From: a virus
Taxonomy: Duplodnaviria > Heunggongvirae > Uroviricota > Caudoviricetes
Reading direction: 5' to 3' (one strand)
DNA: 47,028 nt
IMG/VR virus record: IMGVR_UViG_2778261425_000003
This document shows positions 1-21,245 of this stretch, piece by piece. The translations under genes and the position numbers were made by a program. The notes beneath the pieces are model-generated. The model was not told the DNA's origin, ran no database searches, and was given only the letters and a program-made list of their open reading frames with translations. Numbering within the stretch: position 1 is the first letter of the stretch; every line of letters starts with the position of its first letter.

Positions 1-443
1 TGAAATGTAAAACACTACCTCTGCTGGCGATGGTTGCCACCACTCTGTTTCTGAGCGCCTGCGATGACAGGAGTGATGACCTGAAAGCTATCAGTAAATT
101 TAAGGACCTCACGCCTCCGCGCTTCAGCGATGTGGTCAGTCGGCAGGATGATGTCAGCGAAGAATGGTCACAGGTTGGCTTTTCATCAGGTCTCACCCTG
201 CAGGTCTTACGTACCCGTGAGTCGCCCGATGGCTGCGAGGGCGGTAGTTACTACTACCTCGTGGATATGCAGGAAAAAACCATCCAGCCGCTGATGAATG
301 CGCTGTGTATTGCCGATAACATCAAACTGGAATACCAGGAGGTGACGGACCCGTATACCAAAGAAAAATACTTTGAGTACGCCCATGACGGCAAACTGAT
401 GGGGCAGCTACTGATACCCTCGAACCCTGACAATCAGGAATAA
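1..443 (+). CDS. YafY/YfjS-family prophage lipoprotein; start codon lies about 1 nt upstream of the window
   Basis: Frame is open from position 3 (KCKTLPLLAMVATTLFLSAC), lipobox LFLSAC, stop at 441-443; recalled similarity to CP4-type island lipoproteins. Confidence 0.6.
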   Translation, partial: KCKTLPLLAMVATTLFLSACDDRSDDLKAISKFKDLTPPRFSDVVSRQDDVSEEWSQVGFSSGLTLQVLRTRESPDGCEGGSYYYLVDMQEKTIQPLMNALCIADNIKLEYQEVTDPYTKEKYFEYAHDGKLMGQLLIPSNPDNQE

Positions 444-465
444 AACAACGACAAAGGAGACAAGA

Positions 466-933
466 ATGACAATACTTTCACTAAGTCGGTTTATGCTGGC
501 GGGTGTACTGCTCGCGAGCTTTAATGCCTCTGCTATCCCGGGGTTCTGGCAGCAGGGTTACGGTCAGGGCAATACGGAATACAGCGTGACCGAAGCCAGC
601 GGAAAGACGTTTACCATCAACTGCACAGGGAACCCGGACCAGAATGGTTTCTATCAGCATTCAGTCTTTCTTACCCTTGCCGATGACAAGATGGTCAGTT
701 CGCACGATGACGACACTACTATCACCGTAGTGATGGATCACCAGCAGTACATTATTCCGTCCAGCCTGGGCTGGCGTAACGGCGATAACGCCTGGTTTGA
801 CTTCATCAGCAATATCTCTGAGGCCGGGCAGTTCGACGTCTACGTCAATGACCACAAAGCAGGGACCTTCACTGCGGACCGGAAGAACACTGAGAAAGTT
901 CTGTCCACTCTCGGAGACTGCAGCAACGACTGA
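466..933 (+). CDS. hypothetical exported protein with N-terminal signal peptide, CP4-type island
   Basis: 155-aa ORF with hydrophobic N-terminus ([18 protein letters not shown]), ATG preceded by AAGGAGA. Confidence 0.55.
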
Positions 934-1009
934 TAGTAGTATCTTCCCCAGCAAATCCACCCCGACAGCTAGCAGGCTGCCGGGGTTTTCTTTTATCAGG
1001 AGCCCGAAA

Positions 1010-1249
1010 ATGACCCAATCCGTGTTGCTGCCACCGGGGCCTTTCACCCGGAGACAAGCGCAAGCGGTCACTACCACGTACAGCAATATCACACTCGAAG
1101 ACGACCAGGGCAGTCACTTCCGTCTGGTGGTTCGTGATACTGAAGGCCGGATGGTCTGGCGGGCATGGAACTTTGAGCCGGATGCCGGTGAAGGTCTTAA
1201 CCGCTATATCCGCACCTCAGGCATCCGTACAGACACGGCCACCCGCTGA
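1010..1249 (+). CDS. DUF905-family small protein (YkfF-like)
   Basis: Internal ATG at 1010 with AGGA RBS; 79-aa product [20 protein letters not shown]... typical of CP4 islands. Confidence 0.6.
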
Positions 1250-1346
1250 TCGCGAAGCATTTACCCGCATTCACCTCCCCGAACACACTTTATATCCCCA
1301 TACGCCAGCCATCGCCGCTGGCGTTTTTATTGACGGAGACATACCC

Positions 1347-1805
1347 ATGACAACACAGACGCAGCACGACCTCGCACCCGCTAACCAACCCGAATTTGAA
1401 CTGACCGTCACGCCGGTCCCCGATGAACAGCGTATCGATTTCTGGCCACAGTACTTTGGCGCTATCCCGCAGTGGCTACTCCTGGAGCCGCATATCTTCG
1501 CCTGGATGGACCGCTTCTGTGAGGGCTACAGCGGTGGTATCTGGTCGTTCTACACCCTCAGCAATGGCGGCGCATTTATGTCCCCCGAGCCTGACAACGA
1601 TGAGACATGGCGTCTGTTTAACTGCCTGAACGGTAACGATGCCCAAATGAGTGCAGAAGCAGCAGGTATTGCTGTCTGCCTGATTGCGTATAGCCACCAT
1701 GCCTGCCGTACAGAATGTGACGCGATGACCGCACACTATTACCGCCTGCGGGAGTATGCCATGCAACATCCAGAGGCTCACGCCATTCTGCGTATTATCG
1801 ACTGA
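1347..1805 (+). CDS. antirestriction protein, KlcA/ArdB family (YafX/YfjX-like)
   Basis: ATG at 1347 with GGAGA RBS; 152 aa; recalled family of CP4 island antirestriction proteins. Confidence 0.7.
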   Translation: MTTQTQHDLAPANQPEFELTVTPVPDEQRIDFWPQYFGAIPQWLLLEPHIFAWMDRFCEGYSGGIWSFYTLSNGGAFMSPEPDNDETWRLFNCLNGNDAQMSAEAAGIAVCLIAYSHHACRTECDAMTAHYYRLREYAMQHPEAHAILRIID

Positions 1806-1820
1806 CCGAAGGAGCAACAG

Positions 1821-2297
1821 ATGAAACAGCTTTCCTTTTTACCCGGCGAGATGACGCCACAGGACCGGCGTCTCATTCAGCGGGCGCTCAGGGCTCTGGA
1901 CCGCCACCTGCATGAGCCCGGCGTAGCCTTCACCTCTACCCACGCCGTACGTGAATGGCTGCGACTGCATATGGCCGCGCTTGAGCGGGAAGAGTTCCGG
2001 GTGTTGTATCTGGACAACCAGAATCAGTTGATTGCCCATGAAACGCTCTTCACCGGCACGATTAACCGCACCGAGGTGCATCCCCGGGAGGTGGTCAAAC
2101 GTGCTCTGCACTTCAACGCGGCGGCGGTGATACTCGCGCATAACCATCCTTCCGGCGAGACGACACCTAGCCAGGCCGACAAAACCCTCACGCAGCGACT
2201 GGTTCAGGTGCTTCAGCTGGTGGATATCCGTGTCCCTGACCATCTGATTGTCGGTGGCAGGCAAATCTATTCGTTCGCAGAACACGGTCTGCTTTGA
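1821..2297 (+). CDS. RadC-like JAB-domain protein (YkfG/YeeS family)
   Basis: 158-aa ORF with JAMM motif region HNHPSGETTPSQAD; RBS AAGGAG. Confidence 0.8.
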   Translation: MKQLSFLPGEMTPQDRRLIQRALRALDRHLHEPGVAFTSTHAVREWLRLHMAALEREEFRVLYLDNQNQLIAHETLFTGTINRTEVHPREVVKRALHFNAAAVILAHNHPSGETTPSQADKTLTQRLVQVLQLVDIRVPDHLIVGGRQIYSFAEHGLL

Positions 2298-2305
2298 GGT
2301 ATTAC

Positions 2306-2527
2306 ATGAAAATTATCAGTAAACGCAGGGCAATGACGATATACCGCCAGCATCCTGAGTCCCGAATCTTTCGCTACTGCACCGGCAAATACCAGTGGCA
2401 CGGTAGCGTCTGTCATTACACCGGCAGGGACGTTCCGGATATCGCCGGAGTCCTCGCGGTATACGCCGAACGCCGCCAGGACCGCAATGGGCCCTATACC
2501 TGCCTGATGAGCATCACCCTGAACTGA
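2306..2527 (+). CDS. DUF987-family protein (YeeT/YkfH-like)
   Basis: ATG 2306 six nt after GAGG; 73 aa MKIISKRRAMTIYRQHPES... Confidence 0.6.
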   Translation: MKIISKRRAMTIYRQHPESRIFRYCTGKYQWHGSVCHYTGRDVPDIAGVLAVYAERRQDRNGPYTCLMSITLN

Positions 2528-2545
2528 CAATAGTGGAGAACTGTA

Positions 2546-3225
<680 letters not shown>

Positions 3226-3290
3226 ACATTGCGTACAACCTTCCCGATTTACATTTCTGAACTTCCTCCCTTGTTTACCTATTGCGTAAT

Positions 3291-3326
3291 GCGCCTGCTA
3301 CTACCCGGCAGGCGCGTTATCTTTTT
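3291..3326 (+). terminator. rho-independent terminator downstream of the toxin gene
   Basis: Perfect 8-bp stem GCGCCTGC/GCAGGCGC, 9-nt loop, then GTTATCTTTTT. Confidence 0.6.
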
Positions 3327-3596
3327 ACGGACAAACAATCATGCAACCAGAAGTTGAAGTATTAACCGATCATAATGAGCTAATTTGTTCGAGCTTTATT
3401 GAACACATTGCCAACACATTAAATTTAGGAGTGGTGTACAACTAAACCTGCAGCCAAGGATGTATAGTGAGCGAAGCCCTATCAGGCCTTTTTGGTCAGT
3501 AGATAAGATTGATCTTCGTTGATAGAATTTACTTACACCAGCTGTTACATTAAGATAATTTTTTGGTGGGAGAATGATAAGATCTTACGTAACAAT

Positions 3597-3652
3597 TTGA
3601 TTTTAATGGTGCCGATAATAGGAGTCGAACCTACGACCTTCGCATTACGAAT
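3597..3652. repeat. attR: 56-bp direct repeat of the thrW 3' end (55/56 identical to 45575-45630)
   Basis: ttgatttTaatggtgccgataataggagtcgaacctacgaccttcgcattacgaat repeated at 45575-45630; covers the 3' 46 nt of the tRNA plus 10 nt of flank. Confidence 0.85.
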
Positions 3653-3872
3653 CATAAGAATCCGCTTCTAATTCAAAGTATTACCCCATCAACACTGCGC
3701 TCACACGTCCCACCACATCAAAACATGTAAAGCCTTGCAAGCCATTGTGAGGCCTTATGTGTCTCAGTTTTGTCCCACTACGACCTGCACAGAAAATAAG
3801 AAAATAGCGGTGATATCAAACAGTACAGAAGTCTTTTTTCTTTCAAATGGAGAAACTGATTAACCCGTTTAA

Positions 3873-4100
3873 TTGTACTCCTCATGGGTAATCAGCAGTC
3901 CTCAGAGTAATGGAATGGCAGAAAGATTCGTGAAAACGATGAAGGAAGACTACATCGCGTTCATGCCGAAACCGAATGTAAGAACGGCATTGCATAATCT
4001 TGCAGTGGCGATCGAACATTACAATGAAAACCATCCGCACAGTGCGTTGGGTTATCGCTCTCCGCGAGAATATCGACGTCAGCGGGTAACGTTAACTTAA
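3873..4100 (+). pseudogene. IS3-family (IS2-like) transposase C-terminal fragment
   Basis: 75-aa ORF ending ...[30 protein letters not shown]; only the last part of a transposase, no upstream catalytic region or inverted repeat. Confidence 0.6.
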
Positions 4101-4141
4101 GATACACCCCCTGTCTGGAAATAAGGGGGCAAGAACAATGA

Positions 4142-4885
4142 TCAGATTCCCTGGTGAGTAAGAATTTTACTTTCTGAACTCCTCTGAGAGTATTGACTTG
4201 GAGAAACACCAAAATAACGTCTAAATACATAAGTAAAGTATGAGACACTGGCATAACCACAGACCTTAGCTACTTTACTAATAGGATAACAACGAGTGCT
4301 GAGTAAATATTCAGCCATTTGCATCCTCTCATCAAGTATGATCTTACTGAATGATATCCCCTCTTCTTTCAATTTCCTCTTTAGTAAACTTTCGCTGAGA
4401 TATAATCTTGATGATATATCCTTAAGACGCCATGGTGCAGATAAATCCGTATGAATAATCGTTTTAACTTTAGCCCCTGTGCTTTTCAAACATCCAAACA
4501 GAAATACTCCAAATTGTTTTTCAGAAGAAAATGCAGAGAGACATGTAAAAGCAATAGACTCATCAAAAATTTCTATGTATTCAGCACAGTGATTAGCCCA
4601 ACTAATTAATCCTTTAATTAAACTGAAGTTAGCAAAGTTTATTTTTAAATAAGATGGATATTCCCTACAATCAGAAATATCCCTTAAGTTATTAGCTTTC
4701 AAATAGCGACTAATAAACTCAGCGCCAAAATCCGCCACTATCACTCTTTCAGGATATGTCAGGAAAAAATCTCTAGAGCTAGAGTCGACAAGTACAGATG
4801 AACCTCTCTCCAGAAACACACTTTCTTTTCCGAAATAAATATCAAAGGACTCCAAAATCAATATAACTGAACATGTAGTTGCCAT
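4142..4885 (-). CDS. AraC/XylS-family transcriptional regulator (YdeO/AppY/GadX-like), low-GC cargo gene
   Basis: C-terminal double HTH (..SESLLKRKLKEEGISFSKIILDERMQMAEYLL...CGYASVSYFTYVFRRYFGVSP); ATG 4885 with GGTGG RBS, in-frame ATG also at 4894. Confidence 0.75.
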   Translation of the reverse strand: MATTCSVILILESFDIYFGKESVFLERGSSVLVDSSSRDFFLTYPERVIVADFGAEFISRYLKANNLRDISDCREYPSYLKINFANFSLIKGLISWANHCAEYIEIFDESIAFTCLSAFSSEKQFGVFLFGCLKSTGAKVKTIIHTDLSAPWRLKDISSRLYLSESLLKRKLKEEGISFSKIILDERMQMAEYLLSTRCYPISKVAKVCGYASVSYFTYVFRRYFGVSPSQYSQRSSESKILTHQGI

Positions 4886-5469
4886 ATCATCCACCCAATT
4901 TAACTGAAACCAGGATGAAGTATATGCATATAAAGTTCACTTTGCCAAACTTCAGTATAAAAAACCACATAAAAAATAGGGTGTGATAAAAAATACCGTA
5001 ACAATAAAGCAAAGGATTATAAATTCCGTTACAGTTACAAATGATACTCAAGAAACAATTTCTTAGGAAAAACTTATTTACAGCCAATAAGTAAGACACT
5101 TATATGATATCAAGTTTTCATAAGGCATAACTAGGCTAAATAGCTGCGCCTAATACCGCTACACTTTTGCCAGCCCATGTTTGCCTCCGGGTATTGACCC
5201 CTTCTTTACGCAACTTCAGTTCCCACCACCAACTTTGCGGCAGCTTTGTAGGATCAATGTCTAAAAGAATAATGGTGACCGATAAGAAAACGACTGAATA
5301 ACTGCAGATTTTCGCTCAAAACCTTCCTGTCAGATCCATAGCGAATCAAGTGCTGAATGTCACAGTATCGAACAGAAAACAGTGACGATCTAACCCTTCA
5401 AGAATATTCTACGATTGTTCTGTTTAGGAAAAGCAAGGCGGGAAGTCGGGAGATAAGTCATTGATAAAG

Positions 5470-5535
5470 TGGCGGAGAGAGGGGGATTTGAACCCCCGGT
5501 AGAGTTGCCCCTACTCCGGTTTTCGAGACCGGTCC
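5470..5535 (-). other. truncated tRNA-Ser(CGA) 3' fragment (serU-like); att-site relic, not a functional tRNA
   Basis: Reverse complement reads GACCGGTCTCGAAAACCGG (anticodon arm, CGA), long variable arm, GGGGGTTCAAATCCCCC T-arm, CTCTCTCCGCCA; D-arm and 5' acceptor strand absent. Confidence 0.75.
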
Positions 5536-5615
5536 AATCATCAAACGAAACATAAAATTAATTCACATTATGAGGAAAAGTATCTTTTTTGTACTATGTA
5601 AATTCAAAGACTTAG

Positions 5616-6485
<870 letters not shown>

Positions 6486-6542
6486 GTCTTTAAGTGATAA
6501 GCATAAACCGCAGCACGATCTTGCATACGACGTGCTACGGTT

Positions 6543-7097
6543 TCATTTATCTCCGACCGGAAACTTCTTATACAGTGTCGATATACCAACATCATAGATG
6601 ATCGCCACCTTCTGGCGAGGAACGCCTGATGCAATTAATCGCCCGGCCTGCGCCCATTGTTCTGGTGTAAGTTTGGGACGACGTCCACCAATTCGTCCCT
6701 GTGCGCGAGCAGCCTCCAGTCCAGCTTTTGTTCGTTCAACAATCAGCTCTCGTTCCATTTCAGCCAGGGCCCCCATCACATGAAAGAAAAAACGCCCCAT
6801 CGGTGTGCTGGTATCAATTGAATCCGTCAGACTACGAAAGTTGATGCCTCGTTCGCGCAACTCCTCCACCAACACGACAAGATGCCGCATACTACGCCCC
6901 AGCCGATCCAGCTTCCAGACAACCAGAGTGTCACCTGCCGATAATGTCCTGAGCAGTTTTTTCAGTCCCGGCCTTTCGGACTTTGTGCCGCTTATCTTAT
7001 CTTCAAAAATCAGCTCGCATCCTGCACAGTTCAGCGCATTACGTTGTAGATCTGTGTTCTGGTCATTTGTTGACACACGTACATAGCCAATAAGCAT
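6543..7097 (-). CDS. pin: serine DNA invertase, Pin/Gin/Hin family
   Basis: 184 aa MLIGYVRVSTNDQNTDLQ...; catalytic Ser in YVRVSTNDQ, C-terminal HTH; GGGAG RBS before ATG 7097. Confidence 0.9.
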   Translation of the reverse strand: MLIGYVRVSTNDQNTDLQRNALNCAGCELIFEDKISGTKSERPGLKKLLRTLSAGDTLVVWKLDRLGRSMRHLVVLVEELRERGINFRSLTDSIDTSTPMGRFFFHVMGALAEMERELIVERTKAGLEAARAQGRIGGRRPKLTPEQWAQAGRLIASGVPRQKVAIIYDVGISTLYKKFPVGDK

Positions 7098-7123
7098 GGT
7101 AGATCTCCCTGACAAAAGCAGGA

Positions 7124-7516
7124 ATGATGCCATTTGCTCGTTATTTATGTATTTTTATAAACGTTGGTTTGGGAGAAGCGGCTAAAAGGAATGTAGGGAC
7201 AGGGGCGAATCAGATACCTGATATGGGTAGCTTCACGCTTTCTGTTTCAGGTACTGGATATCAAAAATTACCATCAGGTTTTATTCTTCAGTGGGGCTCA
7301 ATCGGCGCACCAGGCATTGCACAGGATGTAGTAACCCATTTCCCGATTGCATTTCCAAACAGATGTCTGCGTGTTTTGGTCTCACAAGACTACACACCAG
7401 ATAGCGGGGCTGTTGGTTATATTGCCTGTGCAGGTTTTAGTCCCGACCCGGTTAAATTTATATCCAGAGCCAGTACTCCTGGCCTCGGCGCTTCATTTTT
7501 AGCGTTAGGCTGTTAA
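7124..7516 (+). CDS. alternative tail-fibre C-terminal segment (Sv'), promoterless in this orientation
   Basis: Open frame running from the left crossover site; no own start context; would fuse to the constant N-terminus after inversion. Confidence 0.45.
7153..7178. repeat. gix/pix-like invertase crossover site (left)
   Basis: Reverse complement TTCTCCCAAACCAACGTTTATAAAAA matches the inverted copy at 9029-9054 over 14 contiguous nt plus a partial right half. Confidence 0.7.
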
Positions 7517-7537
7517 TTTAGCTATATGGAGTGAAAA

Positions 7538-7978
7538 ATGAATTACATATATTCCGCGACTACAAACTCTTTCTATCCGCTGGAGATGAAAGAGGATTAC
7601 ACTCAAGCTGACTCATGGCCAGATGATGCTGTTGAAGTTGATGAGCAAGTGTATATTGAGTTTTCCGGATTACCGCCGAAAGGAAAAATCCGTATCGCTG
7701 GAGAAAATGGTTTTCCTGCATGGTCTGAAATTCCACCACCAACACATGAGGAACAGATTGCTGCAGCCGAACTGGAAAAGCAGCAACTGATTAATCAGGC
7801 CAACGATTATATGAACAGTAAACAATGGCCTGGTAAAGCGGCTATTGGTCGTCTGAAAGGTGAGGAACTGGCGCAATATAATTTGTGGCTGGATTATCTG
7901 GACGCACTGGAACTGGTTGATACCTCCAGTGCTCCAGATATTGAATGGCCTACGCCTCCGGCAGTTCAGGCCAGATGA
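7538..7978 (+). CDS. tail fibre assembly protein (U'-type), alternative orientation
   Basis: 146 aa MNYIYSATTNSFYPLEMKEDY...; conserved C-terminus DYLDALELVDTSSAPDIEWPTPP shared with the opposite-strand paralogue. Confidence 0.75.
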   Translation: MNYIYSATTNSFYPLEMKEDYTQADSWPDDAVEVDEQVYIEFSGLPPKGKIRIAGENGFPAWSEIPPPTHEEQIAAAELEKQQLINQANDYMNSKQWPGKAAIGRLKGEELAQYNLWLDYLDALELVDTSSAPDIEWPTPPAVQAR

Positions 7979-8552
7979 CATCCGGCGCGGTGCTGGTATC
8001 TGTTGCCGTCACCGCGTCAATGTAATCCAGCACGGCGTTAAGTCGGGTTGTTTCTGCCTGCGTCAACTTCCGTCCGGCCTGTAATTTCAGCTGAATCAGA
8101 CTAATGGAAACCATTGCTGCATCAATCAGTGACTGGCGCTGTGCTTCTGCCGCTTCTACTGCGGCGCTATGCTGTGCCTCAGTATCCGTCACCCATTTCT
8201 CACCATCCCATTTATCATATGGCGTTAACGGGGCGATAGTGGTTGTATTTTCAGGGTAATCACCCGGAGCTGTGATTTCTTTGGCGTCTCCCGTTTCGGT
8301 GTTATAGACGATTTCACCGCGATGGTCTGACACATATTCCCATGATTTTAAATCCACAGAACGGCAAATTGTATAACCAGCTTTATGTGTAACTGGTGCA
8401 TCTAAACAAGAACATGCTGGGATACCGACGCCAACCGCAAGATATTCAGTTGATGTGGAAATATATTCCCGCGTTTCACCATCATAGTTATAAACGGTAA
8501 TATCCCCTGCCTTTGTAGCAACAAGTCCACTATTTAATATTGCTTTATCCAT
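7950..8552 (-). CDS. tail fibre assembly protein (U-type), currently expressed orientation
   Basis: 200 aa; C-terminus LDYIDAVTATDTSTAPDVIWPELPEA; directly downstream of the tail-fibre gene. Confidence 0.75.
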   Translation of the reverse strand: MDKAILNSGLVATKAGDITVYNYDGETREYISTSTEYLAVGVGIPACSCLDAPVTHKAGYTICRSVDLKSWEYVSDHRGEIVYNTETGDAKEITAPGDYPENTTTIAPLTPYDKWDGEKWVTDTEAQHSAAVEAAEAQRQSLIDAAMVSISLIQLKLQAGRKLTQAETTRLNAVLDYIDAVTATDTSTAPDVIWPELPEA

Positions 8553-9331
8553 TATGCTGCTCTCACGATATAGTTAAATGCAATGTTTCTTGGTCTGTTC
8601 TCTGAGGCAGTTGGCACTACTCTTGAAGCATCAAAATTGACTAAATGAGGATTGTTTGGGGTATTTGGAATGATTGTGGTGTTACCTATCGTATTACGAA
8701 GTGCTGATTGACTTACAAAAACACCACTCGCTGTATTAAAGCTAATAGCCGCATTAGCTTCGGTTTGTCCATTACCAAATGTGCCGGTTATATTACGAAT
8801 AGCATCCCCCTGAGCAGACAGAATTTCGCGCCCCGCGTCAATACCGCGCCCGTCATCCCAACCACGAATAAACTCACCACGTAAATCAGGCAATTTATTT
8901 GTTGGATAAGCCTTTGCCAGTTCCGGGTATTCTTCAGCAGAAAAAACCGCACCATTGCATTTCAGCCAGCCTGTTGGCGGAGTGGCGGAAGGCCACGGAA
9001 CAGGGACACCAACAGGTAATGCAGAGCCTTCTCCCAAACCAAGGTTTTCGAGAGCCGTTTTCACCGTGCCGTCCGATTTGATATCACCAAACGGATTCTT
9101 GCGGCTTAACAGCAGCGCACGAAGCGCGGTAAGCAGCTGGTCGTGCCGCGCCTTCTCGAGACTGGCACCGGATGCCTCCACAACGCTGCAAAGCTCCTCC
9201 TGCAACATGTCAAAGTAGTCATCATCCAGATCGGTGGCAGGCGTGCCAGTCTGGGGGTTACCACGGGTAAAACCGTTCTTACCCGCGCCGAACTTATCCT
9301 TCTGCGCGGTTTTCGTGTCTATACGATGCAT
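8552..9331 (-). CDS. tail fibre protein (constant N-terminus plus variable C-terminus in the current orientation)
   Basis: 259 aa; crossover site falls at about codon 97; position after the baseplate genes. Confidence 0.7.
9029..9054. repeat. gix/pix-like invertase crossover site (right), inside the tail-fibre gene
   Basis: TTCTCCCAAACCAAGGTTTTCGAGAG in inverted orientation relative to 7153-7178. Confidence 0.7.
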
Positions 9332-9334
9332 GGA

Positions 9335-9919
9335 TTACTCCGGATATTTAAAAATTACGTAGGTATGCGACGGGCAGAGTTTGTTAAGCACGCACTCGAC
9401 AACGGTGTCCCCCCAGATACGCAGTGCGGAATCACAGGGATCGCCACATGTCATCCAGGTGGTGTTGGTGGCGGCTGGCATGTTGACCTGCCAGTAATAC
9501 CGCCATTCCGGCGCATTCACCGCGTCAGTACAGGCCGATGAGCAGGTGAACGTGATTTTGTCGTATCGCGTGATGGTAGCGTCTGGTCTGCCCAGGGCAG
9601 CAAGCTGTGCAAGGTAAAAATCCTCATTGATGCCGCCCGCTAGGTTAACCTTCGCATCCAGTCGTTGCTGACGCTGGCGAAGGGTCTGTGTCCCTGCGGG
9701 AATACATTCATCCGGCAGGCCGCACAGACGCTCCCAGCGATTTATCAGTTCGGTGGTGGTGCGCGGATCCAGCTCCCGCATCAGGGCATCCGCACGCTGA
9801 TGAACACGAGTTAATGACGGTGCCGCACCGGCAATCGCCGGATCGCTGGCTGACCACGCCGGACCGGGCGGCAGCAGTGCCGACAACAGACGGATGTAAT
9901 CATCGTTTGTCACGTCCAT
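9335..9919 (-). CDS. Mu gp48-like baseplate/tail protein
   Basis: 194 aa; position and size in a Mu-like baseplate gene series. Confidence 0.6.
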
Positions 9920-10968
9920 GAAATCGTCCCCAGAACCGCCAGTTCATTTTTTGCAATGGAGATATTGTCCGCCGGTGCAAGCAATTGATGGCTGTATTCC
10001 CCGTTCGCACCGGAAATCGCTTCACTGATACGCGACACCTTCAGTTCTCCCTGCGGATAACCATCACGCAGCAGGAACGAACGCAACTCAGCAGTGATGG
10101 CGGCTCGTATTTCCGGTGTGTCCGGCGTCACGCGGATATGAAAATCCACCGTATGCGCCACCGGCCTGAACACATACAAATCAGAGCCTGCCACCGGGGC
10201 CAGTGGCTCAATGTGTTGTCTTGCCGCCGTTTCCGTTGATTCTTCCGGAATGGGATTAATCAGGTCACTGCCGGCAATCATCACACCGACAGTCCCCGTT
10301 CCCATCCAGTGACGGTATGTCCATGCGCGGGTAATGCCGGGCACTTCTTTAGCCCAGACGACATAGTCCCCGTCAGCCCCGCCCTGCGGCGTCCAGTAAT
10401 ACCGCTCAATGACGCGGGCGCGCCACGTTTCCAGCTCTTCAGTATCAAATCCGCCTGTAAGGGTGTCAGCCACACCGGAAGACGGCAGACCATTCACCGG
10501 CGTGACCAGGATTAATGCCGTACCGTCGTCAGCGTTACCGACCGCACCTGCACTTGAGCAGGCGATCGGCACGCGCAGGACACCACCGGAGCTGGTTGCA
10601 TCGGCAGTTGCCGTGTACTGAACCAGGTCATCGCGCTGAATAACACTCCCGGCGGTCACCTTCAGGCCATCGCTGACACCTTCCCAGCGCATATACCCGC
10701 TGGCAGCCGTGGCCCCCTTGCGCGGACACCGTTTCATAGCAGCATGTCGCGCCAGCCAGGACTCATCGCACAGGTCAGGCAGCATGTTCATTGCCAGATA
10801 ATCGATGTAACCGTAAACCGTATGCAGCGCCGCCGCATACACCTTTGCCCGCACGTCTTCATCCATGCGCCGGAGCGTGTCGCTGACGTCCAGCCTGGCG
10901 AATAAATCGTTACGGAGCATACTGATATTTTCTGCCAGCGTCGGGCGTTGAAATTCACTGTCCGCCAT
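9910..10968 (-). CDS. baseplate J-like protein (Mu gp47-like)
   Basis: 352 aa; overlapping start/stop coupling with flanking baseplate genes. Confidence 0.7.
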
Positions 10969-11383
10969 GCGTTATCGCACTCCACAGATCATCAAAAGAA
11001 ATCATTACCGGTCCGTCACGACGCCAGAGAGTGATACTGTTACCCAGTTCATTAATCCCGGTGCGGCGGATATCCAGATCAATACGGGACACCACGCCAT
11101 CATCAATCATCCATTGCAGGCATTCGCGGATATACCCCCTTACCGTCTGCACCAGCTGATTGGTCAGTTTGCTGCGCTGAAGCAGCCACAGTCGGGAGCC
11201 GTAACGGTCATTCTGTACCGCAGGCCAGGTATCCCCCCACCATCCCATCGGGACGTCGGCGTTGTCATCAGGCTCCGCCCGCCGCCAGGTAAACAGGGAA
11301 ATCACCACGGAGCGGGTCAGCGGATCCAGCGGTGCGCTGGCGCAGGTGCGTTTACCGTTCACCGTCAGCCACAGTTCCATCAT
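10955..11383 (-). CDS. Mu gp46-like baseplate protein
   Basis: 142 aa; conserved position. Confidence 0.6.
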   Translation of the reverse strand: MMELWLTVNGKRTCASAPLDPLTRSVVISLFTWRRAEPDDNADVPMGWWGDTWPAVQNDRYGSRLWLLQRSKLTNQLVQTVRGYIRECLQWMIDDGVVSRIDLDIRRTGINELGNSITLWRRDGPVMISFDDLWSAITHGGQ

Positions 11384-11928
11384 GCCTCCATCGCTTTATC
11401 CGGTTTGTCGGTGTTACTGCCCTGACCGTTCTCTCTGTGACGATGCCCGTTATAGGCAAGCCGCATCGCTGACATGGTGGTGCCGCCGGAGTCGCACAGG
11501 TCTTTCACCTGTCCGGTCACTTCCAGGTCCATTTCAAAACGTGCTTCAGGTGCATTGCGAAACGTGATCGTTTTACCTGCACCGTCCACCACGATCCCCT
11601 CCCGGGTCAGCGTCACGGACTGCCCCTGATCGTCATAGACAGCCACCTCACCCGTCTGCAGCCCTTTCAGGCGGTAGCGACGGTCCGACACCGTAACAAC
11701 CACCGCATGAGAACGGTCGCCATCCGGAAACAACACCACAGCTTCCGCACCGCTGTTTGCCCTTGCGGTAAAACCGTAGGGTTCAAGATGTTCAACCCCG
11801 GCTTTGGGTTCACCGGCAATCAGGGACACATCCACGGTCTGACATTTCGTGGCGGCACTGATGCTTTTCACCACGGCCCGCCCAATCAGGCCGAGGAGTT
11901 GTCGCTGCATGGCTTCAATCGTCCTCAT
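11380..11928 (-). CDS. baseplate assembly protein (Mu gp45 / V-like)
   Basis: 182 aa; conserved position. Confidence 0.6.
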   Translation of the reverse strand: MRTIEAMQRQLLGLIGRAVVKSISAATKCQTVDVSLIAGEPKAGVEHLEPYGFTARANSGAEAVVLFPDGDRSHAVVVTVSDRRYRLKGLQTGEVAVYDDQGQSVTLTREGIVVDGAGKTITFRNAPEARFEMDLEVTGQVKDLCDSGGTTMSAMRLAYNGHRHRENGQGSNTDKPDKAMEA

Positions 11929-13007
11929 CAGAACGGGTCCTCCTGTACTCTGGCTTTTTTCTTTTTCCGCGCGCCGGGGGCTTCGGGTTCAGGCAGATAA
12001 GCATCAGACGGGCCGACACGGATTTCCGTCAGGGTGCCGTTCTGGTCCTGAGTAAACGTGACTTCCGAAACAAGCAGTTCGGTATTGTCGAAACCACAGA
12101 CCGGATCGAAGACAATCACCCGCTGGTTGGGCTGCCACAGCGTACCGTTACCCTGTCGCCAGCCCTGCACCACATAGGTGGTTTCATCCGTCCGCGCCGC
12201 CCGTTGTCGGGCTTCAAAGTCCGCACGGGCAATACAACCTGCCCCCGTAGCCTGCCCTGTCTGCCTGATATACATCGGACGGTAACGGGCAATAAATGCG
12301 TCCTCTGTGCGGGCCCGCAGCGCGGTGGTGGTGGCCTCACCGAAATCATCGTCGTTTCCGGCACGCTGCCCCGCCACCTGGTAAACAGAAAATCGCTCCC
12401 GGATACTCTTCTCCGTATCGCAGGAAAGGATGTTTTCCCCGAGTACCAGCGCGGTATGTGCCCGCGTTGAGCCAATACCGCCAATCACCAGCCTGCCGTG
12501 CGGGTCGTCATAAGCCAGCGCCTGCTGCTGACCGAGTATTTTGTTAATCACCTCGATCACCGTTTCACCGTGATCAGGCTGGACATCAGGAATAACACCC
12601 GACGGCGCACCGCTGTTCACCACCTCAATGCCGAAGGGCGCAGCAAGCGCCTGCGCAATCTGTACCAGTGATCGTCCGTTAAACTGTGTCGGTTCGGCTG
12701 CACAATCAATCAGGTCAGCGGTCAGACTGCGTCCGGCAATACCGGTGCTGACCGAACGGGCATCGTAACGAACGGGCGTCGCCTCCACCCAGCCGGTGAT
12801 CACCAGCTCATCACCAATCAGCACCTCCACTTTTGAACCGTTTTTAATGCGCGGCTGAAGCGTGGTAATACCCTCATCACCCGGCCACTGGCGGGTGATC
12901 TCCACACTGAAATCCCGCGCCAGCCGTTCAATACCGGCACCGATGCGCACCGATGTCCAGCCATTCCACTCCCGGCCATTTACCCGTAGCGTGACATTGT
13001 CGTTCAT
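11928..13007 (-). CDS. Mu P-like (gp44) baseplate hub/tail protein
   Basis: 359 aa; follows the DNA circulation gene as in Mu. Confidence 0.6.
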   Translation of the reverse strand: MNDNVTLRVNGREWNGWTSVRIGAGIERLARDFSVEITRQWPGDEGITTLQPRIKNGSKVEVLIGDELVITGWVEATPVRYDARSVSTGIAGRSLTADLIDCAAEPTQFNGRSLVQIAQALAAPFGIEVVNSGAPSGVIPDVQPDHGETVIEVINKILGQQQALAYDDPHGRLVIGGIGSTRAHTALVLGENILSCDTEKSIRERFSVYQVAGQRAGNDDDFGEATTTALRARTEDAFIARYRPMYIRQTGQATGAGCIARADFEARQRAARTDETTYVVQGWRQGNGTLWQPNQRVIVFDPVCGFDNTELLVSEVTFTQDQNGTLTEIRVGPSDAYLPEPEAPGARKKKKARVQEDPF

Positions 13008-14338
13008 TGCACTGGCACCTTCAGAGGGATCACCGGCACAAAGCCGGGATGCGTAATGGCATTACGCCGGATAATGTCCGCGTCACGCGCCGCGTTATCA
13101 AACCAGGTCGCCGCCAGCACCAGCGCGGGTAAAACCTCATCCGGTGTGCGCTGAATGATCCGTGCAGACTGTTCAAGGCGCGTGTTGATATCCGCATTCA
13201 GATCTGCTTTCACCCGGCGCAGCGCCAGAAACAGCGCATCGCTGGTTGTACGGGACAACTCCTTATCAATTGCCGTATTCAGTGTGTCGCGAATGTCAGT
13301 CAGTTCTTCCCACGTCGGCAGGTCAACCGTGTTTTTCACCGCCGGTGCATTGTTCAGTGCCGGATGCGTGACGGAAGGCCAGCCAGTGCTCTGCGCGGGT
13401 GTTGTTGCCTGCCCCACTGTGGCATTCTGCATCACCGCGGAAGTTGTTGGCGCAGGCAATCGGGTGACGGCATACGCCGCTTCGCTGATTGCGGTCGTAC
13501 GAAGGGTGCTGGCAACCACGTTACGCTGCTGCGTCGCCGTGGCGGTGGTTTTACTGTCCGTTTTCCAGACGCCGCGCGGTTGCAGATCGCTGCCGAGGCT
13601 GACACCGGAAAGCGTTTTGATCATGGTGACCAGGTCGCTGGCGTTACCATAAAGGCGTTTCCCGGTACGCCACATTTTCTGCACCTGCTCAACGAAATTT
13701 TTGCCTGACGATGGCGGCGGCAGAAGTACCGAGATATCCCCCTGCAACAGCCTGGCGGCGTCCGATACGGCAGAATCCACCACTTTCATCGCATCAGAAA
13801 CATACCCCAGCATTATGCTGGCATTACCGATAACGTCGTTCTGCACGAAATCCGCCACACCATCGATACTGAAACCGCTGAAGCTGTCACTGATGCAGTT
13901 ATCCAGTGCAGAACAGGATGACATCAGCGTCTGCGCCGTCGCCGCACCTGATGTGGGGTAAGAGAGTTCTCCTGCTTCGACAAACTTCAGGTCAAAGCGG
14001 ACAATACGCCCTTCACTTTTCGATGTGCTGACCCGAACTTCCCCGTCAACACAGACTTTCAGCTCACCGTATGTCGGATGGACAAGCGTGCCGGGACCGG
14101 GTTTATTCAGCGCGTCAATCAGGCGATCGCGCTGGTCAAAGCAGTCATCTCCCACCACATAAGCCGTGATGGACGGGCGAAAAGTGATTTTCCCCAGGTC
14201 TTCGGTATAGGGTTTGTCGCGGTTCGGGTATTCATGTGTTTCCACACGGCGACCGGTTCCCGCACTTTCTTCTTCAACCTTAAACGGCACACCTCGAAAT
14301 GACGCATCCTGAAGCCTGTCTTTCCACGTCATATACAC
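13004..14338 (-). CDS. DNA circulation protein (Mu N-like, gp43)
   Basis: 444 aa; downstream of the tape measure gene. Confidence 0.65.
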   Translation of the reverse strand: MYMTWKDRLQDASFRGVPFKVEEESAGTGRRVETHEYPNRDKPYTEDLGKITFRPSITAYVVGDDCFDQRDRLIDALNKPGPGTLVHPTYGELKVCVDGEVRVSTSKSEGRIVRFDLKFVEAGELSYPTSGAATAQTLMSSCSALDNCISDSFSGFSIDGVADFVQNDVIGNASIMLGYVSDAMKVVDSAVSDAARLLQGDISVLLPPPSSGKNFVEQVQKMWRTGKRLYGNASDLVTMIKTLSGVSLGSDLQPRGVWKTDSKTTATATQQRNVVASTLRTTAISEAAYAVTRLPAPTTSAVMQNATVGQATTPAQSTGWPSVTHPALNNAPAVKNTVDLPTWEELTDIRDTLNTAIDKELSRTTSDALFLALRRVKADLNADINTRLEQSARIIQRTPDEVLPALVLAATWFDNAARDADIIRRNAITHPGFVPVIPLKVPVQ

Positions 14339-17023: not shown

Positions 17024-17259
17024 GCCGCTGCATTCAGGTCTGCCGGAGACATCTGGTCGACAGAGCTTTGCGGCACTTTCGCCAGCCGCACAATGTATTT
17101 CGACACCACATGCGCCAGAAGTCTGACGGACTCATCCTGATTCATCTGGTAGGGATACCCCAGCTCGCGGACATCCTTCCCGGTGGGTTCATCAAACTCC
17201 AGTACGGAGAGTGTCTCACCATGAGCGATAATCGGTTTCTTTAACTCAAGCTCTTTCAT
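16990..17259 (-). CDS. tail assembly chaperone (between tube and tape measure)
   Basis: 89 aa; conserved position; ends 6 codons after the slippery site. Confidence 0.6.
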   Translation of the reverse strand: MKELELKKPIIAHGETLSVLEFDEPTGKDVRELGYPYQMNQDESVRLLAHVVSKYIVRLAKVPQSSVDQMSPADLNAAAWLVAGFFLQA

Positions 17260-17615
17260 TACTGGTAATCCCCTTCTTCACCGTGGAACTCAAGATCAAC
17301 CGTGCCTTCTTCGGCATTATGGTTCGCTTCTCCGTGCAGCCAGGCGGACGACAATACATAGACCTGACCGTTCGCCAGCTCGGCAGTGATAGTCATCTCA
17401 TCAGACGAGGTGATTTTGCTCACCGGAAAATTCTTCGGCACCTTGAAGGTCCCTTTGACATAAGGCGCACGGTGAGTTTCCTTGCGGTCCACTGAACCGT
17501 CCAGGCCGATGATGTCATCATTGACCGTCCTGTTCATGGGCACCTCAATGCCGCCGGTCAGCGATAGCTGCTGACCGTCAATTTTGAAATAACAGGTTCC
17601 CCCGATACGGGCCAT
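17259..17615 (-). CDS. tail tube protein (contractile tail)
   Basis: 118 aa immediately downstream of the sheath gene. Confidence 0.7.
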   Translation of the reverse strand: MARIGGTCYFKIDGQQLSLTGGIEVPMNRTVNDDIIGLDGSVDRKETHRAPYVKGTFKVPKNFPVSKITSSDEMTITAELANGQVYVLSSAWLHGEANHNAEEGTVDLEFHGEEGDYQ

Positions 17616-19111
17616 TATGCAGACTCCTCTGAATACTGAAGACGGAACTGGTTAACCACGGCAAAGACACGCAACTGGTTAACATAGTCAGGCGGGAACA
17701 GCGTGTTCAGGCGGTTCGGATCGCTGGCATCACGCTCCACAACCAGGTACTGCTTAAACAGTTCGTAGTTTTCCACGATCCCCGCACGCTCAAGCTGACG
17801 GTAGGTTGCCAGCAGTTCCCCTTTGATCACCGCCGGGGTGACAATCGCCTGACCGGGACCAAAGCGGGTACCGTCACTGGCAAGCTTGTGACGCCCGTAC
17901 TTACTGGTAATGACGGATTTCAGTTTGCGCAGTACATACGAGCTGGTATGCAGAGTCTCACTGTCTAGGTAGCTGTTATCCGCAATCCCGTAAGCGTTTT
18001 TCCTGTACGTGGTGACATCACGCTGAATGCGCAGTACCCCGCTTTCGACATACGCCGTTGCCACGCCATGAGACAGCAGGGTCTGTTGTTCGGTCATCGT
18101 GAACCGTTTCCCCTTCGGCGCAGGCAGCATACCCACCAGCTCACCGGTCTGCGTGGGACGTGCCGGATCGTTGCGAATAAACACCGCTGCGCGGGCGGTA
18201 CGGCTTGCCGCCAGTTCGTCGGCAGGCGTCTGGGTCTCTTTTTCGTACCCCGCCAGGGTAATGTGCTGCTGGTTAAACTGGTCACCTGCGGTCACCAGTT
18301 CTGACAGCGTGCCGATCTTTGCCGTATACACATGACCATACAGCTGACGCGCATAGCTCCAGCGACCGCTGGTATCGTTCATCTCGGTCACCAGCGTGTT
18401 AACGGAGGCCGTGTCGTTGAACGGCAGACCGATATAATCAAACGGCTCATCCGCCATTGCAGCCACCGCGCCGGTGAGAACCGGAGCACCCGTTCCGGCG
18501 GTACCCGTCGCCACGGCAATCTGTACGCCCGCTGGCAGCACTTCGCCCCCACCAAAGCCGTAGTAATTGAGGCTGACAGGAATTTCATTCCCGCAAAGCC
18601 CCTTATGACGCGCGGTCAGTGTGACCACGCCTGCCGAAGATGAAGCCGTAAACGGCAGGGCCGGAACGGCATTGATGGCATCTTTGATACTGCTGGCAAT
18701 CGTCGTGACGTTATCGCCGTTGGTCACCGGAGCCTGCACGCGGGTACGTCCCACATAGACATTCACCGTGCCGGTTTCGGTTGCCGCCCCGGTCACCGTC
18801 AGCGTAACCGTTGCCGCCGCGCCTGTGGATTCAGGAACGGCAATCACATACAGCTCGCCAAACGGGTCGGTCTGGCGATAAGCCTCAACCATACGCGCCA
18901 GCTGACTTCCCGCACCACAAATCTGGCGTGCATAGTCTGCCGACGGCATCAGTACCAGACTGTTGGCAACAATCTCTGCACCGTTATTGGCATGACCAAT
19001 CAGCAGCGATGCTCCGCTGTCCTGTGCAGTATTCGCCGCCTGATTATCCATTTCCGCATAAAACAGCGGAACCAGCGTATTCGACGGAATGGTGTTAAAG
19101 CTTATCGTCAT
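17615..19111 (-). CDS. tail sheath protein
   Basis: 498 aa; size and position typical of Mu L-type sheath. Confidence 0.8.
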   Translation of the reverse strand: MTISFNTIPSNTLVPLFYAEMDNQAANTAQDSGASLLIGHANNGAEIVANSLVLMPSADYARQICGAGSQLARMVEAYRQTDPFGELYVIAVPESTGAAATVTLTVTGAATETGTVNVYVGRTRVQAPVTNGDNVTTIASSIKDAINAVPALPFTASSSAGVVTLTARHKGLCGNEIPVSLNYYGFGGGEVLPAGVQIAVATGTAGTGAPVLTGAVAAMADEPFDYIGLPFNDTASVNTLVTEMNDTSGRWSYARQLYGHVYTAKIGTLSELVTAGDQFNQQHITLAGYEKETQTPADELAASRTARAAVFIRNDPARPTQTGELVGMLPAPKGKRFTMTEQQTLLSHGVATAYVESGVLRIQRDVTTYRKNAYGIADNSYLDSETLHTSSYVLRKLKSVITSKYGRHKLASDGTRFGPGQAIVTPAVIKGELLATYRQLERAGIVENYELFKQYLVVERDASDPNRLNTLFPPDYVNQLRVFAVVNQFRLQYSEESA

Positions 19112-19265
19112 CGGTGTTCACCTTTTTATTCACGCGCCGGATATCACCCGCTACTTCACGGCGCAGCCAGTAGTTGTTCTCGTCAACATTTCGCCCTTCG
19201 GCGGGCAAAAGGTCGCCGCGGGCAGGGTCAGGAACTGACCGCCCTTTAACAGGTTTGACAAACAT
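19095..19265 (-). CDS. small hypothetical protein upstream of the sheath gene
   Basis: 56-aa ORF MFVKPVKGRSVPDPARGDLLPAEGRN..., overlaps the sheath start by 17 nt. Confidence 0.35.
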   Translation of the reverse strand: MFVKPVKGRSVPDPARGDLLPAEGRNVDENNYWLRREVAGDIRRVNKKVNTDDDKL

Positions 19266-19273
19266 GAGGATCC

Positions 19274-19834
19274 TCAGGAAGGAAGGGTTATTTCGGTGTG
19301 ATGTTCGATATCGCCGTCAGGCCCGTTACCGGGCTCGAGATAATCAACATCAATCGCCAGCGTTTGCAGTTCATCCAGACTGTTCAGATCATCCTGCTGG
19401 CGGGTATCGTCTTCAGTCAGCTCGCTGATGACCGAAAAATCGAACTGATAAATCAGCTCATGACGATTCAGATCCAGCAGCGTGCCGCCGTCATAGGTAA
19501 TCGGGTTACCGCACGCTTCCGGGTTCCAGCCCAGCAGGGCCTTAAAGAGCATCTGCCGGACATCGTCCACCACATCATACGAGGCAAACTGACCGCGCTC
19601 ATCACGCCCGTTACTTAGTATGACAACCACGGAGAAGCCCTCTTTCAGCTCCTGCCAGTAGTCGGTCTGGCTTTTGTTTTCTCCCGGAGAGTCATCACCC
19701 GGTACCACATACGCCGCCGGGAGTCTCAGCTTTCCGACCTCCGGCAGATTTTTGAACTGTGCCGCGCCTGCCACCCGGTTTTCAAAATACGGGCAGCGGG
19801 CACGCAGCGCAGCAATAACAGGCGTCAGTTTCAT
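19274..19834 (-). CDS. tail completion/neck protein (Mu gp37/38-like)
   Basis: 186 aa; position between head-tail joining genes and sheath. Confidence 0.5.
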   Translation of the reverse strand: MKLTPVIAALRARCPYFENRVAGAAQFKNLPEVGKLRLPAAYVVPGDDSPGENKSQTDYWQELKEGFSVVVILSNGRDERGQFASYDVVDDVRQMLFKALLGWNPEACGNPITYDGGTLLDLNRHELIYQFDFSVISELTEDDTRQQDDLNSLDELQTLAIDVDYLEPGNGPDGDIEHHTEITLPS

Positions 19835-20337
19835 CTGTGTCGTCGCTCCGGCTTCAGTGATTTACGCAATTCCCGCGCCAGAAAATAGCGTGTCCAGCTG
19901 CGGTTCTTTTCAAGCGTTTCCACCATGAAGTTATTACGTGGAGCCAGTCGCCAGCCGCTGCCACCGGATGCACCACGATGATGACTACGACGACGTTTTG
20001 CTCCTCCCCGGACACCAAAAAACAGAAATGCCGGATAGAAGTCACCAGAGATCATCCGGTTCCCCTTCCCGTTGCGCTGGTTAGGGGCAATGCGTGTCAT
20101 AAAACCGGCTCGCTTTTTACTGGCTCTCGGCACCATATAACCAATCGAACGAGCCAAGCGTCCGGTCTGATAACCGGGGTTTTCACCTGGTGCCGACCGC
20201 GCACGGCGCATCACCAGCCGACGGGCATCACGCATATGACGCTGCCCAATCGTGACAAACGCCCGCCGGACACGGGCGCGGTTAAAGCGCATCTCGGCGG
20301 GCTGCTGAACATCAACGTGAAAAAAGGGAGTCGCCAT
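19831..20337 (-). CDS. virion morphogenesis protein (HK97 gp10-like / Mu G-like), Arg-rich
   Basis: 168 aa; translationally coupled to neighbours. Confidence 0.5.
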   Translation of the reverse strand: MATPFFHVDVQQPAEMRFNRARVRRAFVTIGQRHMRDARRLVMRRARSAPGENPGYQTGRLARSIGYMVPRASKKRAGFMTRIAPNQRNGKGNRMISGDFYPAFLFFGVRGGAKRRRSHHRGASGGSGWRLAPRNNFMVETLEKNRSWTRYFLARELRKSLKPERRHR

Positions 20338-21042: not shown

Positions 21043-21044
21043 AC

Positions 21045-21245
21045 TCAGCCCTCTTTACTGGTCGTGGCTTTTTTCTCTTTTGCCGCTTTACTGCTTTTTG
21101 CACTGGTTCCGCGCTCTGCTAACCCGGCCTGAAGTGCAATCTCCTGCACCCGGGCAGGAAGCGCCCCGTCGTCATACTCACCGGCCCGAATGACCTCAAC
21201 ACGCATACCGTCCGGTGACCATTTCAGATCTTGTTTCAGGATCAT
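21045..21245 (-). CDS. small hypothetical head-module protein
   Basis: 66-aa ORF with Lys/Ala-rich tail between capsid and connector genes. Confidence 0.4.
   Translation of the reverse strand: MILKQDLKWSPDGMRVEVIRAGEYDDGALPARVQEIALQAGLAERGTSAKSSKAAKEKKATTSKEG

Follow-up and report, generated by a model that had tools for sequence, protein, structure and literature searches.

The window, by which we mean the whole stretch of 47,028 nucleotides of viral DNA that was analysed, contains a prophage bounded by a 48-bp exact direct repeat (3605-3652 and 45583-45630). The features needed to describe its ends are as follows, with a strand where one applies.

3605..3652, minus strand: thrW att core forming attR, the 3' 46 nt of tRNA-Thr(CGT) plus 2 nt, one copy of the 48-bp repeat
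3653..3886: phage arm of a thrW-type attP, matching SfV-family phages
3887..4100, plus strand: IS3-family (ISEc48-like) transposase fragment (Pfam rve_3, E=8e-17; 95.7% identical to ISEc48)
4142..4885, minus strand: AraC-family regulator of the PatE type, 247 aa (Pfam HTH_AraC and HTH_18)
4886..5136, minus strand: AT-rich upstream and promoter region of the AraC gene (GC 0.30)
5137..5191: outer end of an IS630-family element, ~55 bp, internally truncated, similar to an element in locus L013
5192..5469, minus strand: 278 bp of E. coli chromosomal DNA, the serU 3' spacer towards yodB (96-97% identical to native loci)
5470..5535, minus strand: serU core, the 3' 66 nt of tRNA-Ser(CGA)
5536..5711: phage (P) arm of a serU-type att site; the same sequence abuts the 66-nt core at the native attR of MB15 and PM4
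5712..6485, plus strand: LEM-3-like GIY-YIG gene of the serU-type right end (Pfam PF22945, E=2e-14)
6543..7133, minus strand: pin-type DNA invertase, start of the tail-fibre module (Pfam Resolvase and HTH_7)
beyond 7133: tail-fibre genes
44407..45570, plus strand: thrW-type tyrosine integrase, 387 aa, adjoining thrW (Pfam Phage_integrase, E=3e-48)
45585..45660, minus strand: intact thrW tRNA-Thr(CGT) gene, attL (ARAGORN; Rfam 71.8 bits)

Forty-six of the 48 bases of the direct repeat correspond to the attP core of phages SfI, SfII, SfV, SfX and P22 (PMC3636060). The arm next to it is of the same kind, with 3600-3777 being 96-98% identical to the attP regions of SfI, SfII, SfIV and SfV, and 3695-3892 matching PhiR29_1. 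The structural genes are 97% identical to those of SfII and SfI (over 63-81% of a 21-kb query) and similar to those of SfIV and SfV, and a CP4-6-like region with ykfI and yafW lies to the left of the thrW core. The resident element is an SfII/SfV-like prophage integrated at thrW.

Within this prophage, starting 1,817 bp from the end of the thrW attR core, is a fragment of a second host tRNA gene. The minus strand of 5470-5535, GGACCGGTCTCGAAAACCGGAGTAGGGGCAACTCTACCGGGGGTTCAAATCCCCCTCTCTCCGCCA, is identical at 66 of 66 positions to nucleotides 25-90 of serU, which is 90 nt long in a K-12-like chromosome (locus L003). It takes in the CGA anticodon arm with 3 nt 5' of its stem, then the long variable and T arms and, at the 3' end, the acceptor strand and CCA; with similarity to serU ending at 5535/5536, it lacks the D arm and the 5' acceptor strand. 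No other match to these 66 nt, with up to three mismatches allowed, is present in the window, and none was found in 100 dinucleotide-preserving shuffles. The original prediction, made from the letters alone, had placed a 66-nt 3' fragment of tRNA-Ser(CGA) at this position, about 1.9 kb inside an element bounded by thrW repeats, and had taken it for the relic of an att core rather than a gene, and on each of these points the analysis agrees with it.

Neither ARAGORN nor Rfam at its gathering score calls a tRNA at the relic, and thrW (45585-45660, minus strand) is the sole call in the window. With relaxed Rfam thresholds the relic gives sub-threshold partial hits, such as one to tRNA-Sec that scores 29.7 bits where 47 is the cut-off, and it lacks the complete, model-detectable cloverleaf of a functional tRNA-Ser. 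Among the copies of the relic in IMG/VR contigs, 13 of 31 carry one or two core substitutions each, including changes in the T loop and an anticodon change of the CGA-to-CAA type; a change in the T arm turns TTTGAACCC into TTTGCCCCC. The core of locus L001 has one substitution and that of locus L040 is split by a ~1.3-kb insertion. Substitutions that would damage a tRNA are present in many copies, the copies show no purifying selection on the T loop or anticodon, and the changes amount to neutral decay. A search of 4800-5750 found no terminator-like site, such as a retained serU terminator, and no promoter-like site in the relic itself, the sole candidate being one predicted sigma-70-like site in the AraC upstream region (4948-4919, minus strand, 10/12 matches). 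Positions 5470-5535 are an att-core relic and not a tRNA gene. Nothing points to a function for it, and its demonstrable consequence is historical only, namely the three phage arms that are joined to one captured block (see below).

The sequence beside the relic is also derived from the serU locus. A counterpart of 5192-5469 is present, at 96-97% identity, in 5,406 of 5,426 complete E. coli genomes, and in a K-12-like chromosome it lies directly 3' of serU in the interval between serU and yodB, so that 5192-5535 is one continuous 344-bp piece of this locus. Host identity outside the tRNA is confined to these 278 bp on its 3' side, and they are the only demonstrable host DNA in the block. The native flank of strain C4 carries the haplotype of the relic and is 99.1% identical to it over the 344 nt of flank and core, with about three differing positions, suggesting that the donor was an E. 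coli strain with a C4-like serU flank.

On the other side of the core, the sequence corresponds to the end of prophages that are integrated at serU. MB15 contains a complete prophage at this site in the order mtfA, intact serU, three ORFs, a 328-aa integrase gene, early genes, head and tail genes, pinE, the GIY-YIG gene, core, spacer and yodB. The direct repeat flanking it has the same extent as the relic, its attR junction is identical in sequence to that of the window, and the sequence across the core at its attL differs from the spacer. Segments 5192-7225, 8829-14320 and 17222-27281 of the window are 96-97% identical to the MB15 prophage (97.2% for 5192-7225). The junction of the 66 nt with AATCATC is found at serU in both MB15 and PM4, exactly as in the window, and the GIY-YIG gene adjoins the native serU attR in MB15, BS15R-A, RMDEC332, GF130 and PM4. 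A chimeric query of yodB, spacer, 66-nt core, GIY-YIG gene and pinE is covered in full in three genomes, versions without yodB are present in an SfV-like prophage of GF130 and a lambdoid prophage of PM4, and a tail-fibre module starting at the pin invertase is common to serU prophages. The presumed parental arrangement, with the GIY-YIG arm at serU, was thus seen in at least five genomes, as against 413 with the derived arrangement. Among 50,697 deposited phage records we found no free phage with the GIY-YIG (serU-type) arm, and hence no circular serU-type attP of this phage group; all occurrences of the window-type arm were in prophages and IMG/VR contigs.

Because phage arm, core and bacterial flank all match the native ends of serU prophages, the structure is a genuine serU attR. 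The core matches the 3' end of the tRNA gene exactly, from 3 nt ahead of the anticodon stem to the CCA; the bacterial side is the DNA that lies downstream of serU in unoccupied chromosomes, at 96-99% identity; and the phage side is the end of prophages integrated at serU. Positions 5192-5535, with the arm from 5536 onward, thus constitute a complete attR junction with captured host DNA, of which 5192-5469 is the bacterial (B') side. What a resident serU prophage should have at its other end, a matching attL and a cognate integrase, is missing. The resident integrase aligns with that of the MB15 serU prophage at 31% identity over 58 aa only and is not the enzyme that made the relic, and comparison with the MB15 prophage revealed no stretch of the window homologous to its serU-type integrase region. 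Because the element has thrW ends, a thrW-type integrase and no such homology, the junction is a relic and not a live attR.

The block between the two att cores also contains the AraC gene and the remains of two insertion sequences. Homology with phage ev099 begins at 3887, with the IS3 fragment, which marks the left edge of a block common to lambdoid phages. The AraC protein falls in the same 90% cluster as a copy in O157:H7 that is encoded in the same block. The regulator Z0321 has been assigned to prophage CP-933H in O-island 8 of O157:H7 (PMC2907692), and in a further report it is named PatE and described as an RpoS-dependent activator of the gad and hdeAB acid-resistance genes and a repressor of the LEE (PMC10877973). 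The AraC gene of the window is therefore putatively patE, an assignment that derives from position and clustering and not from a deposited PatE sequence. Upstream of it, the IS630-family end is identical at 49 of 52 positions to the element in locus L013, and its 13-nt terminal repeat recurs in inverted orientation at the other end of the L013 element. The junction 5191|5192 joins the broken interior of this IS630-family end to the host spacer; because the junction falls inside the IS630-family sequence, it is an illegitimate one that reflects a rearrangement rather than an insertion.

The same block is present in other phages and is widespread in E. coli. Positions 3887-5531 are 98.8% identical to a segment of ev099, in which the block lies between tail-fibre genes and a lambda-type integrase gene, and the block is also present in mEp332 and PhiR70_1; in E. 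coli chromosomes the ev099-type element is at the classical lambda site, beside ybhB and bioA. The right arms differ. In the ev099-type relic the serU identity extends for 62 nt and is followed by the arm ATGATACAGAG, and the same 62 nt with ATGATACAGAG form the native serU attR junction of lambdoid prophages, in F1140 and in SerU-LTIIb (KU052038), a record in which the depositor's annotation for the 62 nt is pseudo tRNA-Ser. In ETEC H10407 and O157:H7 the relics have the 62 nt followed by ACCCGATCATC, as does the native serU attR of GF130. There are thus three right arms on one block, each of which is also found at native serU attR sites.

Among the 5,426 complete E. coli genomes, the window-type junction (AraC upstream region, spacer, core and GIY-YIG arm) is present in 413, O157:H7 included, and the ev099-type junction in 97; the AraC gene with the spacer is at least 80% covered in 542, and the thrW core, attP arm, IS3 fragment and AraC gene are contiguous in 456. 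The AraC protein is also encoded by 36 IMG/VR contigs, 34 of which match a 30-nt probe across 5191|5192 with up to two mismatches. A first probe for the 62-nt core detected it in 31 of the 36, distributed among the three arms as 14, 10 and 7. The remaining five are L025 (IS5 deletion), L029 (IS1 deletion), L040 (insertion), L030 and L046, and in the last two BLAST alignments span the core at ~98% identity despite the probe miss.

The break at 5191|5192 and the IS630 remnant are identical in nine further relic loci that were compared directly at the junction or by alignment (L001, L002, L004, L008, L010, L030, L040, L046 and the ev099 counterpart in strain 214-4), and the six relic-bearing sequences that were aligned share one 278-bp haplotype that differs from most native loci. 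The simplest reading is that the block was captured once and that its arms would subsequently have been exchanged, at or within the relic, with those of serU prophages. The one lasting property of the relic is its identity with the serU locus over about 344 bp, and either this stretch or the core alone would have provided the crossover point. When native variation is taken into account, the last ~190 bp of the spacer together with the core contain no informative difference, and site-specific and homologous exchange of the arms are therefore indistinguishable.

Could the relic be a live attP core, in a phage able to use thrW or, alternatively, serU for integration? The window has an intact core next to a genuine serU-type P arm, but a free-phage attP is ruled out because host identity extends beyond the tRNA on one side only: the 3' side consists of 278 bp of bacterial flank instead of a phage P' arm, and the P' arm at the MB15 attL is a different sequence. 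Many core copies carry substitutions and one is split, as noted above, and the integrase adjoining thrW belongs to the thrW type. With the bacterial flank and the lack of homology to the MB15 serU-type integrase region, we reject dual specificity as highly improbable. That the relic is a decayed phage-encoded tRNA-Ser, a chance match or an assembly artefact is less credible still, to the point of being negligible. There are indeed tRNA genes in temperate phages of this group, two in SfI (PMC3636060) and four in SerU-LTIIb, but the relic is 100% identical to host serU, is continuous with the host spacer, and has a boundary that coincides with the att repeat of serU prophages; together with the shuffles, in which the expected number of matches is zero, this refutes both a phage tRNA and chance. 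An artefact is contradicted by the presence of the structure in 413 plus 97 complete genomes, 34 IMG/VR contigs and three deposited phage genomes.

A more serious rival holds that the entire segment, from the IS3 fragment and AraC gene to the IS630 end and spacer, lay downstream of the donor serU as chromosomal or island DNA and was taken up in one imprecise excision. Among the copies examined, the AraC segment is always linked to the serU spacer unless the spacer was lost through a secondary IS1 or IS5 deletion. Three candidates for a pre-capture copy of the AraC segment were rejected as secondary deletions: in CT282 homology breaks off at an annotated IS1A transposase gene, L025 carries an IS5 insertion plus a deletion that extends towards pin, and L029 carries an IS1 insertion plus a deletion. 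IS scars frame the AraC gene on both sides, as is often so for island cargo, and three serU-phage arms would be easily explained by independent captures from one donor flank. Against this, no complete E. coli genome out of 5,426 has the AraC segment (3887-5191) flanking an intact serU (by a chimeric query that combined the AraC upstream region with spacer, full serU and mtfA), no relatives of the protein are encoded in GTDB species-representative genomes, and the segment is AT-rich, with 30-35% GC compared to 41% in the spacer; for these three reasons we consider an island origin the less likely one, and on balance improbable. Moreover, 3887-5191 was found in phage and prophage settings only, lambda-att phages included, and the spacer meets a broken IS630 interior and not an IS end, so that a deletion or illegitimate event is needed in this reading too.

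These results also bear on what the original prediction had made of the relic's history. Its proposal of a past recombination or imprecise excision that captured serU-flanking DNA was right in substance, as seen from the 278-bp spacer and the serU-type arm, and the two comparisons that it suggested were positive, in that the flank is the yodB-serU spacer of nearly all complete genomes and the GIY-YIG, pin invertase and tail module occurs at serU with the exact junction. Its further claim that all of 3653-5469 is transduced host or island DNA is supported for 5192-5469 only; 3653-3886 is the thrW attP arm, and 3887-5191 was never seen beside an intact serU in the 5,426 genomes, whereas it does occur in lambda-att phages, which the prediction had not foreseen.

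From the identities, the junctions and their native counterparts, the common left junction and the sequence decay described above, we consider that the relic is very probably the core of a fossil attR from a serU-integrated ancestor, stranded in a thrW phage by a join of the lambda-bio kind. In the order of events that we infer, an SfV-like phage with a serU-specific tyrosine integrase would have lysogenised an E. coli strain having a C4-like serU flank. This ancestor would have contributed the late-gene half, with the GIY-YIG gene, pin invertase, tail fibres, Mu-like baseplate and tail genes and head genes, and its integration would have generated the right junction of phage arm, 66 nt of serU and chromosome towards yodB. 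An illegitimate event of the lambda-bio kind, either aberrant excision or an equivalent, would then have broken the chromosome 278 bp past the tRNA and joined it to the interior of an IS630-family element upstream of a patE-type gene, in a patE-IS3-attP(thrW)-int segment of a related thrW phage, in which the AraC segment was presumably already phage cargo. Alternatively, recombination may have been followed by a deletion inside the IS630-family element, for example between two IS630 copies; the sequence does not distinguish aberrant excision from other illegitimate joins, and the exact recombination mechanism is likewise something that we infer. A homologous crossover elsewhere in the shared genome would have completed a viable hybrid that integrates at thrW and carries the old attR and its 278 bp as a passenger in the non-essential slot between the tail fibres and attP. 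Later recombination within the 344-bp patch with other serU prophages could have placed the block behind other arms, including lambdoid ones, and the lambdoid recipient would have then gained, or already had, a lambda-type att/int module.

The relic was unmarked in the annotated records that we examined, and we found no description of it in the literature on serU, thrW, CP-933H, PatE and Z0321. As a scar it is real and unannotated, it belongs to the familiar class left by specialised transduction, and it is mechanistically ordinary; it also provides a datable sequence record of temperate phages switching integration site and swapping cargo: one serU capture accounts for a block that about a tenth of complete E. 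coli genomes contain, that is seen with three serU-phage arms, and whose phages use two other attachment sites. Part of the DNA upstream of patE is displaced chromosomal DNA. The relic also duplicates 344 bp of the serU locus at thrW or att-lambda, with consequences for how prophage boundaries, tRNA-based island predictions and large rearrangements are interpreted, and because the annotations examined leave it unmarked, island-finding tools that use tRNA fragments could mis-call a prophage end there. A more speculative idea, which we offer with considerable doubt, is that the 344-bp patch may still recombine and act as a repeated crossover point that moves the PatE regulator between phage families. 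These would be the SfV-like myoviruses at thrW and the lambda-like siphoviruses at att-lambda, each via a serU prophage, and a serU-specific integrase and excisionase, or RecA, could use the relic for rearrangements between thrW and serU or for the formation of hybrid phages. This could concern the ~10% of E. coli strains that carry the relic, including O157:H7, which also has Sp14 at serU.

The closest parallel is with the specialised transducing phages lambda-bio and lambda-gal, which are accounted for by the Campbell model of aberrant excision. As in these phages, bacterial DNA contiguous with a prophage end lies inside a phage genome beside a hybrid att site, the junction between host and phage DNA is illegitimate, and the phage no longer has its original integrase end, which was lost or replaced; here the illegitimate junction is 5191|5192 and the serU-type integrase region is absent. 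The att-contiguous host DNA, with the 62-nt core, is moreover present in the deposited genomes of ev099, mEp332 and PhiR70_1, which we take to have been isolated as free phages. Unlike lambda-bio and lambda-gal, the structure is natural, fixed and widespread (413 plus 97 of 5,426 genomes), the surviving host DNA is only 278 bp of non-coding sequence and contains no host gene, integration was regained via another att/int module (thrW here and lambda att in ev099), and the junction falls inside an IS630-family remnant.

The resident prophage resembles SfI, SfII, SfIV and SfV in its structural genes, 46-nt thrW attP core, attP arm and the placement of cargo directly upstream of attP. In those phages this slot is occupied by the gtrABC O-antigen modification genes (PMC3636060), whereas in the window it has the pin invertase, the GIY-YIG gene, the serU relic and the PatE-type regulator. 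The PatE locus of CP-933H and O-island 8 in O157:H7 has the same block, including the serU relic, with 97.4% identity over 4900-5900, but in the strain examined the surrounding prophage, unlike that of the window, is reduced, degraded and interrupted by IS elements (IS1203). In the Sakai strain, prophages Sp1 and Sp2 are at thrW and Sp14 is at serU (PMC8190617). The relic shares the 62- or 66-nt core, the flank and the phage arms with the serU attR of Sp14, SerU-LTIIb, MB15, PM4, GF130 and F1140. The attR junctions of these known prophages are at the serU locus, opposite an intact serU and with a cognate integrase, whereas the relic is 1.8 kb inside a thrW prophage, has no partner attL, and has a flank that ends after 278 bp. 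In how it works the relic is a transduction scar of the lambda-bio type, and as an object it is the same as the annotated serU attR of KU052038.

The phage arm of the serU type, which in the window extends from 5536 onward beside the fossil attR core (5470-5535, minus strand; 66 nt from the 3' part of the tRNA-Ser(CGA) gene serU), always has a LEM-3-like GIY-YIG gene as its immediate neighbour, with copies at the following positions:

Window, 5712-6485: LEM-3-like GIY-YIG gene
Locus L005 (E. coli MB15), 46210-46983: LEM-3-like GIY-YIG gene
Locus L007, 7693-8466: LEM-3-like GIY-YIG gene
Locus L006, 7689-8462: LEM-3-like GIY-YIG gene

The gene and the arm are found together in SfV-like myovirus prophages (MB15 and GF130) and in one lambdoid prophage (PM4). 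Because the arm-adjacent gene is present in both myovirus and lambdoid prophages, we conclude that it moves together with the att arm rather than with the tail genes' module. No carrier of the gene was found in the deposited phage genome collection, and nuclease, defence and homing functions are all possible roles for its product.

The same GIY-YIG arm adjoins a serU core reduced to only ~19 nt, the portion that corresponds to the anticodon arm, in E. coli CE10 (NC_017646; locus L051, ~5003-5021). The prophage remnant that contains this core is SfV-like and lies near ssrA, and the core appears to be a further serU relic, shorter than the first and in a different integration context. Following the core in CE10, a type II restriction endonuclease and cytosine methyltransferase pair replaces both patE and the spacer of chromosomal yodB-serU DNA. 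In the relic-bearing locus L040 (IMGVR_UViG_2537561945_000005), the serU core is split by an insertion of ~1.3 kb at the equivalent of window 5483-5490; about 8 bp are duplicated, and the insert is probably an IS element.

In relaxed-threshold Rfam searches the core region also matches the plastid psbI-rps4 3'UTR family (window 5473-5524, plus strand; score 40.9 bits, cut-off 68). This match runs antisense to the tRNA fragment and was treated as an artefact of tRNA similarity, the likely cause being that the family overlaps antisense plastid tRNA-Ser.

The AraC gene of the window (4142-4885, minus strand; the inferred patE) is flanked by two IS scars:

Window, 3887-4100: IS3-family fragment
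Window, 5137-5191: 55-bp end of an IS630-family element, matching a complete copy carried by plasmid pJNE23-001_1 at 49 of 52 positions

The IS630-family end is preceded by CTAG, the usual target of IS630 elements.

At the thrW att copy, different elements are present in tandem (window 1-3604; 4631-5845 and 5586-8080 in the relic-bearing loci L002 and L008, respectively). Those in the window include the CP4-6-like genes yafW and ykfI, in place of which ETEC H10407 and O157:H7 have a further tyrosine-integrase element, broken in two by IS1203 in O157:H7.

The MB15 prophage has a set of genes in a cargo position at attL:

Locus L005, 8183-10434: three hypothetical genes (350, 143 and 265 aa) between the intact serU and the serU-type integrase

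Window 7124-8600 contains tail-fibre and tail-fibre-assembly ORFs in opposite orientations adjoining the pin invertase. Among their counterparts in relatives, one is annotated as a gp53-like protein and two as convergent assembly genes. Such an arrangement is typical of an invertible host-range segment, and identity to the MB15 prophage falls to 89% here.

In some E. coli genomes (hits H158 and H159), the serU-flank match (query 293-584) comprises only the spacer and the final 14 nt of the tRNA; these records have 2-3 places. Such short matches suggest that further elements, possibly of PAI-serU type, integrate at serU with a much shorter core.
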